Source: Myxococcota bacterium (GTDB taxonomy: Bacteria > Myxococcota_A > Bradymonadia > UBA7976 > UBA1532). Taken from it: 32,873 nucleotides of DNA. Below, piece by piece: positions 3,001 to 15,000 of this stretch. Location of the stretch: assembly GCA_036337435.1 (NCBI GenBank), contig JAYZEG010000080.1, forward strand, positions 1-32,873, in the 5' to 3' direction. The position numbers were made by a program. The stretch's first letter is position 1. Each line of letters opens with the position of its first letter.

Positions 3001-6000
3001 GCTGAAATTGATTTCTGTCCGCTGGCCATGGCCCTCCAGCACCAAGGTGTCTGCGTCTTCAGCTAACTCCACGAAGGACCCCTCAGCCGTCTTTTGCCCG
3101 ACTGTGAGCAGCCTGAGGTAAGTGCCCGGCGCGACGATGCTTTCCGTCACCCAGCCAAAACGGCTCGGTCTGCGTGCAGATGGAGAAAATGGCCTCGAAA
3201 AAAAGGCGATTGAACGGGCCTCCGAGGCACTCATCTGGATATACAACTCTTTTTTAACAGGATGCGCTTTGGTTTGGTTCGGTGACGCAGACCCGTCGCC
3301 TATCCAGTTTGGTGCGACGCACAACAGGCCGACTAGCGCGAGCCCCCGCATGCTCTCTCTCGATTGGCGAATTCTGACTGGCAGCCCTTCAGACCGGTCG
3401 GACCGGAACGCTTCATACATAAGCGGAACGAGGTGTCCTTACTTTTGCAATCGGCACTTTTTGCGGACCCTCGGACTGAATTCTTATATTTGCTGCCCCG
3501 ATTGGCCGTACAGCCGCCGGCCCATACGGCAATGGCCGACCCGAGGAACATCAGGAGGGCGAGGGGGACGACGGTCTTCTGTTTGGTTCGATGCTTCATT
3601 TAACTCCGAAAAAGTCACGGACGCTTAGTTGAACGGGACCAGATTTCTGAGACAAAAGCTAATTTTTGTCGTTTTTTATCGGCTTTCTCCGCCGGACCGC
3701 CCCTTGGACTCGAGAATAACAGTAGCCGTAGCATACTCATCTTCATGGCTTAAACTTACCCAAATGGGTCCGATATTGAGTTGGGCGGCAATTTTGCGAG
3801 CTTGACCATGGAGGCGAATGGATGGGCGACCCCACGCGTCGCTTACAATTTCAATATCGATCAGTGGAATTTGACCAATGAGTGGTGGGGTTCCATATCG
3901 ACTCGCGCCCAACGCCTTGAGAAATGCTTCTTTCGCAGCAAAACGGGTTGCGAGCCGCTCGGCGGTTGGCACTGTCCCATCATTGCAGTAGGTCAGTTCC
4001 TCGCGTGTAAAAGTCCCTTCGATGACGCTCGTACTTGCGTCATCGAGTGCACGACGCCAAAAGTCCGTTTTGGCGAGATCTGTTCCCAAGCCAATGATCA
4101 CAATACGATACGACCATTGGGATCGAGAAGCAGTTCGTATTCTTGGTCCGCCGACATAGTTTTATCGAGGCCACCACCAAAGAACTTCTGTTCACCAAGC
4201 ATGACACTGTATTGTGCCTTCAGCTGATAGTTCCAACGCGCATCTCGCCTTTGAGCATATTGCTCAAGCTCCGCTTCGCTCAGGCCCTCCAGCAAGACGT
4301 TGGCGTTTGCAATACAAACAGCAGCCCCCACATGGCCAAAGCCTAAGCTCGTCAGAATACCCGCTTTGAGGGAACCTGGGCCGTAGTTCAACGCTTCGTC
4401 TGAAAACAAGAGCGGTGCGCGGTCGTCTAATCGTCGGTCCGGCTCATCGAGATTATGCATTGGAGGGATAACCCCCTCATTTAACGACTGGCAAAGACCG
4501 ATTAGTTGCCAAGCGGCCGCACCACCCTTCGCATGACCTGTGATGGCTTTTTGTCCGATGACGGGCAATGGGTTACCCGGACTTCTACCTAATGCCTTAG
4601 CGAGGTTCGAGTGCAATTTCGTTTCATTGAGGTCATTGGCATCCGTACTTGTCCCATGCATACTGATGACGCCGATATCGTCGGCGCCCAGCCCAAGCTT
4701 GTCTAGAGCTCGTCCCAGGGGCGAACTCAGACCACCAGCACCGATTGCACTGATACCGGGTCCAGGTGCTGGCACCGATTTTTGAAGGCCGTCGGCTGCT
4801 GACCAGGCACCAGCGACCAACCCATAAATCGGAAGACCGAGCTCGATGGCTGTATCGGCACGACATAAAAGGATTGTTCCCCCGCCTTGAGACTCTACAA
4901 ATCCACCTCGACGGGCATCGCATGGGCGACTGCTCTGATCTGGGTCAAACCCTCGTCGTTCGCGCTCAGCTGCGCTGATGGTTGCTTGCATCTCAGCAAA
5001 CCCGCGCGCACCTTCCTTACTGAAGTCATCGAAGGCACCAGCCACAACGAAATCTGCTTTGTTGGCCATCAGCAGGTCGTTTGCAATTTCCACGGATACC
5101 GCAGCGGTTGCACAGGCGGACACCGGATTAATCATCGGGCCATAGCCCCCATAAATATACATGCCCGGATAGGCAGCACCCACATTGATCAAAGTCTCTT
5201 GCAGGACATCGCTTTGCTTGTTTTGGTCGAGCACCGAATCCGCATACAGCCGCCGCAATGCACGCATCCCACCAATTCCACTGCCCTGTGTGCAGGCGAT
5301 CCGACTCGGATGAATCTCTGCCCATAGTTCCCTCGGGTCGATTCCAGCGGTTCTAAATGCCTCGGCTGTTGCCAGCAAATTGTAGATGGCGACTGGGTCT
5401 ATTTGTTCTAGTTGCTGAGCGTCGAAACCGAGTCGCGTTGGCTCGAACCCCTCTGGGAGCTGACCTGCAATGTCTCGGTCGATTGGGTCAATCCGGGGTA
5501 CACGAACTCGCGCGCCCGCCTTTCGAACGACTTTGAACCCATCATCTGCAACCACGACTCGAGTGTGTGCCGGATCTTGGCGTTTAAAACTCTCGGCGAT
5601 GTCCGCATCCGGGACATGGAAGACCAAGTCCTCACTGAGGAGCACTTCGCTGTATGCTTCGACCATAGTCGGGTCAAAAACCGCGTTCTCACGGATGCCA
5701 ATTGCACTGTTTAACTCATAAGTCTGCACCAGTGAATTGACATCGACAGCGTCTCCAGTCTCGATGTCCAGCCATTCGCCGTTCTCAAATTTAATATGAC
5801 CGCACAACCAAGCCAGCTCGATAGCATCGGACGGCGTCAGGTGTTGGGTCTTCTCAATGGACCAGCGCGCACGCGCGTTTCCAAAGGGACCGATTTCTCC
5901 AAACCCGACGATGGCGATGGTGCCTGCCGGGTCGATAGCCTTACCAGTTGCAGCCTTTGGTAGTGCTGGGAAGTCGAAGAGATTCAGCGGCAATCCTGGC

Positions 6001-12000: not shown

Positions 12001-15000
12001 TTCGCTTTGGCTTGCATGAGTGGCAGAGCCTTAGCCATCGCTGGTGAATGATACGGTGCACTGACAGACAGCCATTCGACGCCCAGCGAGCGCGGACGAG
12101 CAGACAAACCCTTATCGAATGCGCTAAATTCGCTCTTTGACCGAGTTTCTAGTCGCCTCACAGCCTGTTCGAGGGCATCCGGTTGTCCACTGATCACAAA
12201 GCGCCTCGGTGAGTTCGCTAACCCGATGACTGCATCAAGACCCGACAGAGCTTGTTCAATCTCAACTCGAGATTGTCCCGTTACAGCAACCATGGGAGTT
12301 TCCGTACCGGCGGGTCGGCCGTAAGACATTTGCATGTAGATGCCTTGCCAGACCAGGTAGCGCGCGATTTGGTCAGCTCGTCTTTCTAAGGTTTGAAGGG
12401 TATGTCCTTCAGCCGCAACCAACGCTGGCAGAATGCCCTGACTGTGACCTGTCGTAGCAACAGCCAAATCGGCGATCCGCTCAATATGGAATCCCTGTCG
12501 TTCGAGAGCGACTAACTGGGCAATTTGAGTGACAAAGATCAGCGGTTGAGACAAGACAGCATCAGCCAATCTGTCCGAGGGTGGCCGAGTTGCTGGATCT
12601 TCGATCCAACTGATGAGTTCAAATCCAAACGGATGCAATCCCTCTAAACCCGCACGAGTGTCGACTTCATCTTTGAGCGCGGTCGCACATGAGTTAATGA
12701 GCCGCTTTGCGTTTGGTATTTCGTACAATCGTTCGAGGTCATCAAAATAACTTTGGGCTTGTCCGGCAAAGGTCAGAACAACTCTTGCGTCTCCGTTCCG
12801 AGCCCATTTCAAAAGCAGCGAGTTGGTCGTCGGTGTGAGTTGTGCTCGAATGGCGTAAATGGTGCGTTGATCAACAGTTCCAGCCAAAGACTCAACCAAT
12901 GCATCTGTGATGTCAGTGCCCGTCAGACGACTATCTACTCGATTCCAAGCGTCCATGACAGCTGAGGCGTCTTTTGCATGGATGTTGAGTTTTGCTTTGC
13001 CAAAACGGGACGGCCCCTCAATCCAAGTTTTCTCGCTATTCGCGTTCATTGTCTTGTCCATAAGCTTGTTCATTGTTTTACCGATTTTCCCCAAAATCAC
13101 GATTCGCCTTGCCAATAGCAAAAAGCGTGCACAAAAAAAGTGCCATCGGGCCGGGGTGACCGGCATTTTATCGCCAAAGACCCGTGGCGAAACGCTTTTG
13201 CACTGCGTAGGCTGCTTCGCAGTCCAACAGCTGATACACCCACATGTCCAGTGAACCCTAACCGCGTGCGCGTCAGGGAACAAGCGTCTCTGTTAATTTA
13301 TCATCCGGGTTCCCGAGCCCTGAAAACCCGCACAACTGGTCCCGACGGGACTTTGCAAAACGAGACACTTAAGGTACCGATATTGGGATAACGGAATGAT
13401 TGCAAGATGGAGTTCGATGGCAACCTATATCATCGGCGATGTACAGGGCTGCTTTGCCACCTTTCAGCGATTGCTGGCTTTTGTGCAATTTCAGCCTCAA
13501 CGCGACCGGGTTTATTTGCTCGGAGATTTGGTCAATCGCGGTCCGGATTCACTCTCCATGCTCCGGTGGGCTAAGTCTCATGATGCCGTCTGCGTTCTCG
13601 GTAACCACGACTTGTACTGTCTCCATACGTACTCAGGCGGTGCGAGGCGCGTTGGCGATACGTTGTCAGACGTATTGGCTGCACCTGATGTAGATGACCT
13701 TATGGATTGGCTACGGCGACGTCCTTTCGCTTGGTTCGACGAAACCTGCGTCCTGGTTCACGCGGGATTTCAACCGGATTGGAACGTCGAACAGGCCATG
13801 GCGATTGCCACCGCCGCCACGCGACGGCTTTCCGGGCCTGATTGGAAAGCTGTCTGTCTCACGATGTCGAACACTGATTCGGCGGATGACGGAGTATCGA
13901 CTCTCACCCAAATTCGCATGTGTAACCCATCTGGGGAGCCCGATTACCGATATAAAGGCGCACCTGAAGCAGCACCAAAACACCTATCCCCGTGGTTTGA
14001 AGGCTCGTCCATAGGCACGCCGACTCGTCCCGTTTTTTTTGGGCATTGGGCGGCGTTGGGGCATCGTAACTTAGGCAGCGTCATCTCGATGGACACCGGA
14101 TGTGTTTGGGGCCGGACATTATCGGCCTATCGATTGGACGATGGTCGTGTCTTCGCTGTGCCTGCTGTCCCATCGGATATCTACAGCGACCAGTGAATGA
14201 CAGGTGCATGAGAGCAACAGCGCATGGTATGGTATAGCGGAGCGACTTAGTCGGGGTAAGCAGGTAAAAAAATGGGAAGCATGTTCCGTAGATTCATAGT
14301 GCTCATTGTGATGTGTCTGCCGAGCTTCCAAGCACACGGTCAAGATTTGGTGCGCGGCTGCATCGAGACCAATGGGCAGGGTCAGGGACTAGACCTTTTT
14401 GTCGATGGTCTTGGTGTCCTACACATGAGCCATGCGACCCGTATTCAAGGCAGCTTGCGGCTCACGTCAATCGACGTAGATGGCACTGTGACCAATCAGT
14501 CTATCGCCAATCGCATTCATCGATTCCCGACCACTGACACGTTAGGCACGGGGCTCTTCATCGACGGGACGACAGCCATCGTGTGTTACCACAACCAGCT
14601 CGCCGATACGCTTAATGTAGCGACTCGGACCAATGGACAATGGCGCATCGATATTGTTGCTCGGAATGTGGCTGGTAATGGGTGTGCAGTAACGCGGAGC
14701 GGCAATGAGACATTGGTGCTCTATCACGGCAATAATCAGCTGATGGCTGCAGCCAAAATTGGTAATGGCCAATGGACGACACGCGTTGTGGATGCGGGTG
14801 ATGGCAATGTCGGAGAGTTGCCCAATTTGGCTCGAAGTGGAGCAGGGCAGTTGGCCGTCGCGTATCGTGATACTGCAAATGGTCGACTCAGGGTTGCCTT
14901 TAGAAATGGGGGACAATGGATTGTCGAGATACCTGACCTACCTGTCGGCAATGCTGGTCATAATCCGCGGCTTGTTGCTGTCGCGAACGAATTCAAAATT

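Follow-up and report, generated by a model that had tools for sequence, protein, structure and literature searches.

Two genes and the space before them

The window analysed here, 32,873 nucleotides from a metagenome-assembled genome (MAG) of a marine bacterium of the class Bradymonadia, holds a giant single-chain type I fatty acid synthase (FAS I), fas, and directly behind it a small gene, acpS, for the kind of enzyme that activates such synthases (Table 1). The fas frame is open without interruption over 4098..13283 on the minus strand in the ORF map, 3061 aa when counted from the first TTG; we number residues from the GTG of Table 1, and reading of the sequence offers ATG codons at 13073, 13061 and 13049 as alternative starts. 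In one chain the domains run AT-ER-DH-MPT-ACP-KR-KS.

Table 1. Coordinates of the genes, encoded domains and intergenic region at the fas-acpS locus
Feature	Position	Strand	Extent and basis
fas, single-chain type I fatty acid synthase	4098..13100	-	3000 aa from GTG at 13100; ORF map, Pfam, PDB, motifs
AT (acetyl transferase) domain	12132..12776	-	aa 109-323; SAT PF16073, 2.1e-17
ER (FMN-type enoyl reductase TIM barrel) and Fas1 helical region	10191..11663	-	about aa 480-970; PF08354
DH (hot-dog dehydratase), catalytic part	9132..9425	-	aa 1226-1323; MaoC PF01575, 1.5e-18
MPT (malonyl/palmitoyl transferase) domain	8463..9068	-	aa 1345-1546 and beyond; Acyl_transf_1 PF00698, 3.8e-47
ACP domain, fungal-alpha type	7353..7826	-	aa 1759-1916; Fas_alpha_ACP PF18325, 4.6e-11
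KR (ketoreductase)	5901..6923	-	about aa 2060-2400, limits approximate; phmmer stretch with mycobacterial FAS
KS (ketosynthase)	4449..5474	-	aa 2543-2884; PF00109, 1.1e-22; PF02801, 1.1e-16
acpS, AcpS-type 4'-phosphopantetheinyl transferase	3676..4101	-	141 aa; PF01648, 5.9e-13
Divergent intergenic region, 295 bp	13101..13395		between fas and a metallophosphoesterase gene (13396-14196, +); sequence read, ORF map

Is so large a protein intact? All 13 of the 13 catalytic motifs that we checked are, and the catalytic columns are invariant in 35/35 aligned FAS I sequences. The AT carries GHSQG (aa 218-222, Ser220), aligned to the GHSQG of 6gjc, together with His351, and it is the Ser and His columns that are conserved. 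In the ER, whose N-terminal limit we estimated from a near-continuous alignment of aa 450-980 with 6gjc, the Fas1-AflB-like_hel match (PF08354) covers aa 643-970 at 1.2e-86 and the motif is GGKAGGHHS (aa 649-657; GG-HH columns). The DH has SGDLNPIH (aa 1243-1250, with Asp1245 and His1250; Asp, Asn, Pro and His columns), and the MPT has GHSVGE (Ser1448), Arg1474 and His1573 (motif columns). In the ACP domain, Ser1798 of GGNSARRNQ is the predicted site of phosphopantetheine attachment, an assignment that we take over from the yeast motif. The KR combines a nucleotide-binding TGAGPDSIA (aa 2078-2086) with Tyr2243 and Lys2247 in YAESK (Tyr and Lys columns); the KS, whose halves Pfam places at aa 2543-2751 and 2793-2884, has Cys2663 (ACATA), His2815 (HGTST) and His2856 (GHAKGG), all three in conserved columns.

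In the PDB the protein matches mycobacterial FAS I chains best (6gjc, 1679 bits; 9pqx, 1677; 4v8v, 1663; 4v8l, 1657), with one continuous phmmer stretch over aa 1133-2965. A preliminary description of this locus had called the protein a complete single-chain FAS I of mycobacterial and fungal architecture, and Pfam, PDB and the motifs all agree with it; the Pfam matches that it listed (SAT, Fas1-AflB-like_hel, MaoC, Acyl_transf_1, Fas_alpha_ACP and both KS halves) came back in our searches, as did its PDB ranking, mycobacterial FAS I at about 1680 bits and then the fungal alpha and beta subunits. Judged by its sequence, the fas product is thus a complete, apparently active FAS I of the mycobacterial/fungal type.

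The second gene starts inside the first: in the GTGA at 4098-4101, the GTG start of acpS overlaps the TGA stop of fas, so that acpS is translationally coupled to fas, and the earlier placement of both in one operon holds. Its product passes the AcpS profile (TIGR00516, 62.3 bits against a cut-off of 59.8; TIGR00556, 85.8 bits), and in the PDB it best matches the AcpS chains 3gwm, 7w58 and 3hqj, along with the PPT domain of fungal FAS alpha. Of the Bradymonadia FAS I loci, 14 extend past the downstream end of the synthase gene, and in all 14 an AcpS gene comes after it; contigs from two independent marine runs span the fas-acpS junction. The fas promoter presumably lies within the divergent intergenic region. 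Neither a TetR gene nor one for a carboxylase stands beside fas.

A native gene

Colinear flanks in two congeners and a composition typical of the genome mark the locus as native, and it is vertically conserved in the genus. Two further MAGs of the genus have both flanks, with the housekeeping genes for GrpE and TyrRS, in the same order around fas-acpS (protein identities of 54-91% in G107:C14 and 32-82% in G108:C92). In tetranucleotide distance the contig ranks 54th of 79, and 31% of random 9-kb windows are as distant from the genome mean as fas. Whole-protein searches find FAS I in 4/4 genomes of the genus, and the level of conservation of fas there is close to that of the housekeeping genes around it.

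One might still worry that fas came from another organism, such as an actinobacterium in the same sample, through faulty binning or assembly; the genome is, after all, a MAG of 95 contigs with an estimated contamination of 1.5%, and the window is the whole of a 32.9-kb contig. We find this scarcely credible. Besides the colinear flanks and the typical composition of the contig, relatives hold their FAS I within contigs of 690, 305 and 272 kb, and the protein is only 39-40% identical to those of named Actinobacteria and falls outside the actinobacterial clade.

Relatives, near and far

In the tree, this FAS I is one of 22 rows that form a distinct clade with strong support (100*). Bradymonadia FAS I as a whole is polyphyletic (AU p 4e-83) and belongs to a broad non-actinobacterial radiation that takes in Myxococcota, a planctomycete and a Leptospirales MAG. 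The gene is not confined to this lineage but widespread in other Myxococcota, and homologues are, as had been remarked, already auto-annotated in MAG records. Those from other uncultured Myxococcota, annotated as DUF1729 domain-containing proteins, likewise have FAS I and then AcpS in a Gram-negative host; most Myxococcota-labelled FAS I form a clade of 3200-3490 aa, whereas this protein sits in a compact one of about 2860-3110 aa.

Among solved enzymes, mycobacterial/corynebacterial FAS I (6GJC, 9PQX, 4V8V, 4V8L; the strongest matches, at about 1660-1680 bits) shares the chain of about 3000 aa, the domain order, all catalytic motifs, the want of a fused PPT domain and the separate AcpS-type transferase directly downstream. 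The AcpS here best matches 3gwm, 3hqj and 3ne1, which we take to be mycobacterial AcpS entries. What differs is the sequence, the host and the accompanying type II set, here without FabD and FabH, both of which mycobacteria retain. With the fungal alpha6-beta6 FAS (2UV8, 6U5V, 7BC4, 4V58) the domain set and folds are common (alpha, 611-628 bits for the full-length chains 7bc4, 6u5v, 2uv8 and 4v58_A; beta, about 551-575), and the AcpS also matches the PPT domain at the C terminus of fungal alpha chains; but here there is one chain, not two, the PPT is a separate gene, the fungal insertion modules have no Pfam match at E <= 0.01, and the alignment with the fungal KS is interrupted near aa 2785.

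A type II set without its beginning

The genome was also said to carry FabF, ACP, FabZ and FabI-like genes, and profile searches find them: FabF (619 bits, above cut-off), a FabI-like gene (307 bits to NF005717), a FabZ-like ORF of the FabA fold with a weak match, AcpP, and in addition FabG (288 bits on a trimmed sequence; cut-off 297.75), PlsX and PlsY. As members of a dissociated bacterial type II system (FabD, FabH, FabF, FabG, FabZ, FabI, AcpP) these genes are there, but the set is not complete and wants its two starter enzymes, FabD and FabH. In this 87%-complete assembly, searches for FabD (TIGR00128, PF00698 and tblastn with the FabD of two relatives) matched only domains of FAS I, whose AT and MPT are the sole acyltransferase-fold matches in the whole assembled genome. 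FabH was not found there either: the best TIGR00747 match (58 bits; cut-off 292) is a type III PKS, and tblastn with the FabH of two family relatives gave no match.

These absences rest on four independent queries (NCBIfam, Pfam PF00698, tblastn), and since the genome is 87% complete, the argument for loss leans on congeners and synteny. Searched for with the same families, stand-alone FabD and FabH were also not found in three congeners, of which G108 is 100% complete. In relatives fabH occupies the corresponding place, next to fabF, but here plsX and acpP are 162 bp apart; the empty slot favours true loss over an assembly gap. With FabD and FabH absent and acyltransferase folds present only inside it, FAS I is predicted to be the only self-sufficient initiating synthase in this genome and no duplicate of the type II system.

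Presumed auxotrophs and their possible exceptions

According to a published genome analysis, the Bradymonabacteria analysed are without FabB/F and FabI/L, and the model for the class is uptake of fatty acids from prey (PMC7460792); the preliminary description quoted its statement on FabF and FabI correctly. Here, then, is a marine predator from a group thought to depend on prey for its fatty acids that yet carries an intact giant synthase of the mycobacterial/fungal kind and the enzyme to activate it.

Does FAS I set this genome apart from the cultured family, as had been proposed? The counts of PF08354 given there were reproduced (21/113 Bradymonadia genomes, with 13/27 in family f1 and 1/43 in f3; 45/401 genomes of a phylum sample), and they are lower bounds, for with the whole protein as query FAS I turns up in 26/113. 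The pattern is patchy: 18 of 28 genomes in f1, this one included, and none of the three in f2. Canonical FabF (29/113) and FabI-like genes (28/113) occur only in the order made up of f1 and f2, in nearly all of it, and in 0/82 genomes of other Bradymonadia families, in line with the "auxotroph" claim in print on the cultured family. The contrast with that family does not hang on FAS I: FabF and FabI-like genes mark the order whether it is there or not; the genomes without FAS I (10/28 in f1, 3/3 in f2) all keep FabF, and all but G105 and G106 a FabI-like gene. Nor does the presence of FabD-like genes cleanly complement FAS I across f1. Rescue from auxotrophy suits better the eight FAS I carriers in f3, f4 and f6, because these have neither canonical FabF nor FabI-like genes.

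What might the synthase do?

We think it probable, from the sequences, that fas and acpS form a functional operon of two genes through which a FAS I of the fungal/mycobacterial type makes fatty acids de novo. The steps would be those established for the FAS of mycobacteria, corynebacteria and yeast. AcpS would place phosphopantetheine on Ser1798; AT would load acetyl-CoA and MPT malonyl-CoA, the latter supplied by the acyl-CoA carboxylases of the genome (a 1791-aa single-chain BC-BCCP-CT protein on contig C37 and two PccB-like subunits); KS, KR, DH and ER would run NADPH/FMN-dependent cycles inside a homo-hexameric barrel; and MPT would release long-chain acyl-CoA. FAS I would be the only chain-starting system in this genus, and AcpP, FabF, FabG, the FabZ-like and FabI-like proteins and PlsX/PlsY might handle ACP-bound chains, for elongation and entry into phospholipids, an arrangement of two systems that resembles the mycobacterial one except for the absence of FabD and FabH.

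The scheme has its difficulties. PlsX/PlsY need acyl-ACP, and FAS I of this type releases acyl-CoA; we identified no route of transfer from the one to the other. Without FabD, FabF has no known supply of malonyl-ACP, which leaves the role proposed for the type II remnant hard to account for. Import of fatty acids from prey is possible, because about seven FadL-family transporters are kept. We count against de novo synthesis both the gaps in f1 and f2 and these FadL-family frames (seven in the genome, one of them 11.6 kb from fas), which leave room for reliance on prey lipids.

The same observations give some purchase to a reading that we regard as rather unlikely, in which FAS I is an accessory, specialised synthase that makes acyl-CoA for storage or secondary lipids, and bulk membrane fatty acids come through FadL from prey or from a type II system whose FabD and FabH are unassembled or have given way to unrecognised enzymes. 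FAS I is dispensable in f1 and f2, PlsX/PlsY suggest acyl-ACP and not acyl-CoA as the phospholipid donor, contig C11 carries a type III PKS together with methyltransferases (ICMT-type and SAM), and uptake from prey is the class model in print (PMC7460792). Outlets that one might name are long-chain starters for the type III PKS (with methyltransferases), wax esters and PHA-linked pools. Against it stand FabD and FabH, missing in 4/4 genomes of the genus and fabH from its syntenic place; the neighbourhood of fas, which has no PKS or lipid-tailoring gene; the reductive domains, all intact as in a primary FAS; and the conservation of fas, about that of its housekeeping neighbours. That the enzyme is instead a FAS-like synthase of polyketides or short chains, on the pattern of fungal HexA/HexB, making a starter unit or other non-fatty-acid product, strikes us as very improbable. 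The AT does match SAT, the starter-unit transacylase of aflatoxin biosynthesis, and some records auto-annotate relatives as "type I polyketide synthase"; but SAT is merely the Pfam model for this AT fold, PKS, oxygenase and tailoring genes are absent from the neighbourhood, the KR-DH-ER reductive loop is fully intact, and the best solved relatives, at about 1680 bits, are primary FAS I enzymes.

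Results

A complete FAS I and the AcpS that follows it

The fas reading frame is open without interruption over 4098..13283 of the minus strand, and its product is a single chain that, by its Pfam domains and its match to 6gjc, unites seven activities, ordered AT-ER-DH-MPT-ACP-KR-KS. Compared with all PDB chains, the protein finds other FAS I chains first (6gjc at 1679 bits, 9pqx at 1677, and 4v8v/4v8l at 1657-1663) and only then the fungal subunits at full length, alpha with 611-628 bits and beta with ~551-575 bits; phmmer aligns 6gjc to it in two stretches, residues 60-981 and 1133-2965. 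Because frame, Pfam domains and PDB matches agree, we regard the preliminary description of the gene as accurate: its frame, its Pfam rows and its PDB ranking were all reproduced.

Is the chain equipped to work? We aligned 35 full-length FAS I proteins, namely the one from G000 (the Bradymonadia MAG under study), seven from other Bradymonadia and 27 from databases, 11 of which carry source names (six Actinobacteria and five MAGs labelled Myxococcota or Deltaproteobacteria). All 13 motifs are found in the G000 protein—AT (GHSQG and a downstream His), ER (GGKAGGHHS), DH (SGDLNPIH), MPT (GHSVGE, Arg1474 and His1573), ACP (GGNSARRNQ), KR (TGAGPDSIA and YAESK) and KS (ACATA, HGTST and GHAKGG)—and each catalytic column has the same residue in 35/35 rows. 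These motifs presumably play the catalytic roles that we have assigned to them from the yeast and mycobacterial literature. The ER is an FMN-type TIM barrel with the Fas1 helical region (PF08354), neither MDR-type nor SDR-type; its motif aligns with the same motif in 6gjc, and in the printed alignment the AT and ER motifs are both in register with that structure. Among 14 control genomes, PF08354 has a match in Corynebacterium glutamicum only.

The fas stop codon and the acpS start codon overlap as GTGA. The encoded AcpS scores above the cut-offs of both TIGR00516 (acpS) and TIGR00556, and its best PDB matches are to AcpS enzymes and to the PPT domain of the fungal alpha subunit. FAS I itself ends ~70 residues beyond the last KS match and has no fused PPT domain, so that G000 shares with the mycobacterial/corynebacterial (CMN) kind of FAS I an unfused PPT, encoded by a separate AcpS-type gene directly downstream. 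The arrangement is general: an AcpS homologue directly follows FAS I in 14/14 Bradymonadia loci with downstream DNA. A second AcpS-like gene of G000, on contig C66 (68016-68255), reaches only 38.6 bits to NF000832 and aligns with the fas-linked AcpS in a single stretch (65 aa, 26% identity, E 0.033). Downstream of acpS lies orf228, whose product matches no Pfam family and has only unnamed neighbors in the Atlas.

Features of the fas contig and related genes elsewhere (domains are Pfam matches, in FAS I residues)
Feature	Location	Strand	Particulars
fas (FAS I)	4098-13100	-	GTG start at 13100 gives 3000 aa; ATG codons 27-51 nt inside are alternatives
acpS	3676-4101	-	141 aa; GTG start
SAT/AT domain	aa 109-323
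Fas1-AflB-like helical domain	aa 643-970		PF08354, 1.2e-86, 352/353 model positions
MaoC domain	aa 1226-1323
Acyl_transf_1 domain	aa 1345-1546
Fas_alpha_ACP domain	aa 1759-1916
KS N and C domains	aa 2543-2884
MopE-type repeat protein	14272-20508	+	2078 aa; PF11617, 228.7 bits; bacterial TSP3 repeat
AAA_21/AAA_15/DUF2813 ATPase and 202-aa ORF	20605-22898	+	ATPase 561 aa; one-base overlap
FadL/TodX-family outer-membrane long-chain fatty acid transporter	24711-26153	-	11.6 kb from fas
Nucleotidyltransferase/CDP-alcohol phosphatidyltransferase fusion	27083-28531	-	482 aa
Single-chain carboxylase	G000:C37:90569-95944 (L093:2570-7945)		BC-BCCP-CT, 1791 aa
Type III PKS	G000:C11, L051:836-3735		chalcone-synthase fold, 354 aa; ICMT-family and SAM methyltransferase either side
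KS-FabD clusters of relatives (examples)	G088:C44:581521-587112; G091:C1:129896-135496; G046:C308:646-6651

The locus is native to the genome

The MAG (4.38 Mb in 95 contigs, 87% complete, 1.5% contaminated) holds fas on contig C80, which is 32,873 bp in all. The left flank is colinear with contig C14 of the congener G107 at 54-92% identity (GrpE, TyrRS, a DOPA-dioxygenase family protein, orf228, AcpS and the FAS C-terminus). The right flank is colinear with contig C92 of a second congener, G108, at 32-82% identity, through a metallophosphoesterase, the 2078-aa MopE-repeat protein, the AAA_21 ATPase, a sigma factor, FadL, UDG, the NTP-transferase/CDP-alcohol transferase, a TPR protein and a cNMP-binding protein. 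In tetranucleotide distance C80 ranks 54 among 79 contigs; the distance of fas from the genome mean is reached by 31% of 9-kb windows taken at random, and the GC content of fas is 0.544 vs 0.526 for the genome. The FAS I genes of relatives lie inside contigs of 690, 305 and 272 kb. Near-identical DNA is present in 14 seawater or marine metagenome runs from 11 studies (word share at least 0.21), and contigs from two of these runs bridge the fas/acpS junction without indels; the run contigs (Logan) are short and of low depth, each spanning less than fas, and speak to presence and to the junction. Might C80 nevertheless be a binning artefact? With flanks that are colinear, a composition that is typical and DNA that recurs in marine runs, we think this very unlikely.

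A type II set without FabD and FabH

G000 also encodes much of a type II system. FabF scores 619 bits against a cut-off of 494 and lies in a plsX-acpP-fabF cluster on C48, and AcpP is above its cut-off; FabG, from a trimmed sequence, reaches 288 bits against 297.75. On C32 a FabI-like gene reaches 307 bits with NF005717, a narrow model whose cut-off of 337 is reached by no control genome, and a FabZ-like ORF of 145 aa with the FabA fold scores 93.9 bits against 155. PlsY is present, along with 11 PlsC-family matches and about seven FadL-family frames (nine matches), the last echoing the many fadL copies reportedly found in cultured Bradymonabacteria. There are two PccB-like carboxyltransferases, and the 1791-aa single-chain carboxylase is a candidate source of malonyl-CoA for FAS I.

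How, then, are chains begun? In this 87% complete genome FabD was not found: TIGR00128 and PF00698 match only the AT and MPT domains of FAS I, as do the FabD proteins of two class relatives (G058 and G101) searched against it by tblastn. FabH was not found either. The best TIGR00747 match (58 bits, cut-off 292.1) is the type III PKS, and tblastn with the FabH proteins of two family relatives (G104 and G085) returned nothing at E <= 0.01. Relatives that have fabH carry it beside fabF; in G000 the plsX-acpP gap is 162 bp, and this abutment of plsX and acpP argues for a true absence of fabH rather than an assembly gap. The three congeners likewise have no match above the FabD or FabH cut-off, and in one of them, G108 (100% complete), the further acyltransferase domains lie only within long frames (2236 and 938 aa) that resemble PKS.

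Some relatives have, as a conserved cluster, three FabF-like ketosynthase genes with FabD between them, which is absent from G000; 10/12 FabD matches above cut-off lie in such clusters, and for the FabD genes of G057 and G058 just one neighboring KS was seen.

Distribution across the class

Our survey covered 113 Bradymonadia genomes in nine families, f1 to f9; G000 belongs to f1, which with f2 makes up its order. The PF08354 counts of the preliminary description could be repeated exactly: 21/113 in the class, 13/27 in f1 without G000, 1/43 in f3, and 45/401 in a phylum sample, where the carriers include other Myxococcota (13/29 in family f17) and a closed 9.3-Mb genome. The class count is a lower bound, because contig ends often interrupt a gene of 9 kb. 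A whole-protein search at E <= 1e-60 finds FAS I in 26/113 genomes (f1 18/28 with G000, f2 0/3, f3 2/43, f4 3/5, f6 3/13, and f5, f7, f8 and f9 together 0/21), including all four of the genus, in two of which (G107 and G109) only pieces at contig ends are seen.

The type II genes are distributed more sharply. Canonical FabF is above cut-off in 29/113 genomes (f1 26/28, f2 3/3, other families 0/82) and a FabI-like gene, at E <= 1e-70, in 28/113 (f1 25/28, f2 3/3, other families 0/82). Two published studies describe the Bradymonabacteria analyzed as lacking FabB/F and FabI/L (PMC7460792; PMC11509652). That absence fits f3 and the other families, not the order of f1 and f2. It had been proposed earlier that G000, with its FabF, FabI-like gene and FAS I, departs from the published picture; it does, but the mismatch does not depend on FAS I. 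In eight of the genomes with FAS I, all from f3, f4 and f6, canonical FabF and FabI-like genes are both missing, and FAS I would therefore be the sole recognizable synthase there. Across f1, FAS I shows no clean complementarity with FabD-like genes or FabH. Family f8 (G065-G081) stands apart: 16/17 of its genomes, most of them 90-99% complete, have no ketosynthase match of any kind, FAS I and FabI-like genes are each found in 0/17, and the only AT-domain match lies in G065 within a 2359-aa PKS-like frame. These genomes are candidates for complete fatty acid auxotrophs.

Relatives and phylogeny

At E <= 1e-50 the protein matches 960 database proteins. Nearest are metagenome proteins of ~2860-3110 aa (45-61% identity); next comes a tier of 3200-3490 aa (40-45%) from MAGs labelled Myxococcales, Polyangiales or Deltaproteobacteria, annotated mostly as "DUF1729 domain-containing"; named Actinobacteria are at 39-40%. 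We built a FastTree phylogeny from KR-KS alignments of 972 columns and 124 rows (a sample of 124 from 255), and left partial proteins that do not cover the region and genomes G107, G109, G092, G016 and G044 out of this tree and of the IQ-TREE run below. The rooting uses 12 rows of fungal type, among them proteins that bear the names Mycothermus and Pseudomicrostroma, and so draws on a single region and a single set of outgroups.

Bradymonadia FAS I falls into at least three clades. The first is compact (22 rows, support 100) and holds G000, G108, G090, G091 and 18 database proteins; the second (28 rows, support 97) holds nine other Bradymonadia and Myxococcales-labelled MAG proteins; the third (support 100) joins G083 and G084 with a Polyangiales-labelled protein. 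The actinobacterial clade (27 rows, support 100, with Nocardia, Mumia and Microthrixaceae) groups with the second clade and not with the first. IQ-TREE on 65 rows gives the same topology, and an AU test rejects monophyly of the 15 Bradymonadia rows (delta lnL 1923, p 4e-83). The G000 protein thus stands outside the actinobacterial clade and would therefore be an enzyme that works like CMN FAS I yet is not of the CMN lineage. Among the deep branches is a cluster that includes a protein of Candidatus Uabimicrobium amorphum, a planctomycete whose predation resembles phagocytosis, and a Leptospirales MAG protein. The Uabimicrobium homologue, 3160 aa and annotated as a type I polyketide synthase, belongs to the cluster of P0126 and branches deep among the bacterial sequences. 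A further homologue, P0051 (3436 aa), is named for a Mycobacterium sp. genome (5.9-Mb contig); it groups with Myxococcota- and Deltaproteobacteria-labelled sequences, apart from other Actinobacteria, and may be a second FAS I, acquired laterally.

Discussion

What G000 has is a FAS I of CMN-type architecture with intact motifs, an AcpS coupled to it, a native and conserved locus, and an assembly from which FabD and FabH are absent. How might these parts fit together? In the scheme that we favor, AcpS would activate Ser1798 of FAS I, and the synthase, presumably a hexameric barrel, would turn acetyl-CoA and malonyl-CoA, the latter supplied by the genome's carboxylases, into long-chain acyl-CoA. 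FAS I would then be the system that starts chains in the genus, and FabF, FabG, the FabZ-like and FabI-like proteins and AcpP, with PlsX and PlsY, would handle ACP-bound chains. The scheme has two gaps: where malonyl-ACP comes from and how acyl-CoA becomes acyl-ACP.

The chief alternative, less likely but plausible, casts FAS I as an accessory that provides acyl-CoA to, say, the type III PKS, and draws membrane lipids from prey through FadL. The type III PKS could consume long-chain acyl-CoA and yield alkylresorcinol- or pyrone-type lipids, and the genome has about seven FadL-family frames. A bolder extension of the scheme in which FAS I starts the chains would have it replace type II initiation altogether. 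As sole chain starter in the genus, it would lend its MPT (or AT), the genome's only acyltransferase fold, in trans to give free AcpP malonyl or acyl groups, and the "headless" FabF/FabG/FabZ/FabI set would still make ACP-bound chains for PlsX/PlsY and other ACP-dependent steps. Such a type I/type II hybrid, lacking FabD and FabH, would differ from the mycobacteria, which retain both; we know of no description of one there. As a corollary of the fungal-rooted tree, the CMN enzymes would make up a single branch within a broader radiation, most of it non-actinobacterial, that takes in Myxococcota, Candidatus Uabimicrobium amorphum and a Leptospirales MAG. Taken whole, this extension seems to us unlikely.

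Bradymonabacteria have been regarded as predators that have lost fatty acid synthesis and feed on the lipids of prey. Our counts suggest that the loss is family-specific: one entire order retains FabF and FabI, and a quarter of the class genomes have a self-contained FAS I, which in some is the only recognizable synthase. The "CMN" megasynthase is a drug target and a structural model, and here it appears in Gram-negative bacteria in a diversity that is large and little studied. A Gram-negative FAS I beside a type II set without FabD and FabH also raises the question of how acyl-CoA and acyl-ACP metabolism connect. Homologues of this FAS I already carry automatic annotation in databases; our additions are a corrected view of the class as a whole and a partner pathway without FabD and FabH. 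The literature searched yielded nothing relevant on DUF1729 or on any FAS I from Myxococcota, Bradymonadia or Uabimicrobium; there, the bacterial form of this synthase is described only as "CMN-bacterial FAS" (10.1101/336578).

The neighbors of fas deserve a word of their own. One gene away, and divergent from it, lies the MopE-repeat protein, which consists for the most part of putatively metal-binding repeats and whose G108 copy is 58% identical over 2070 aa. The ATPase and the 202-aa ORF, which has no family match, are also kept as a pair in G108 and look like a two-gene defence-type module. The product of the 482-aa fusion may be an unusual polar head group or a compatible solute.
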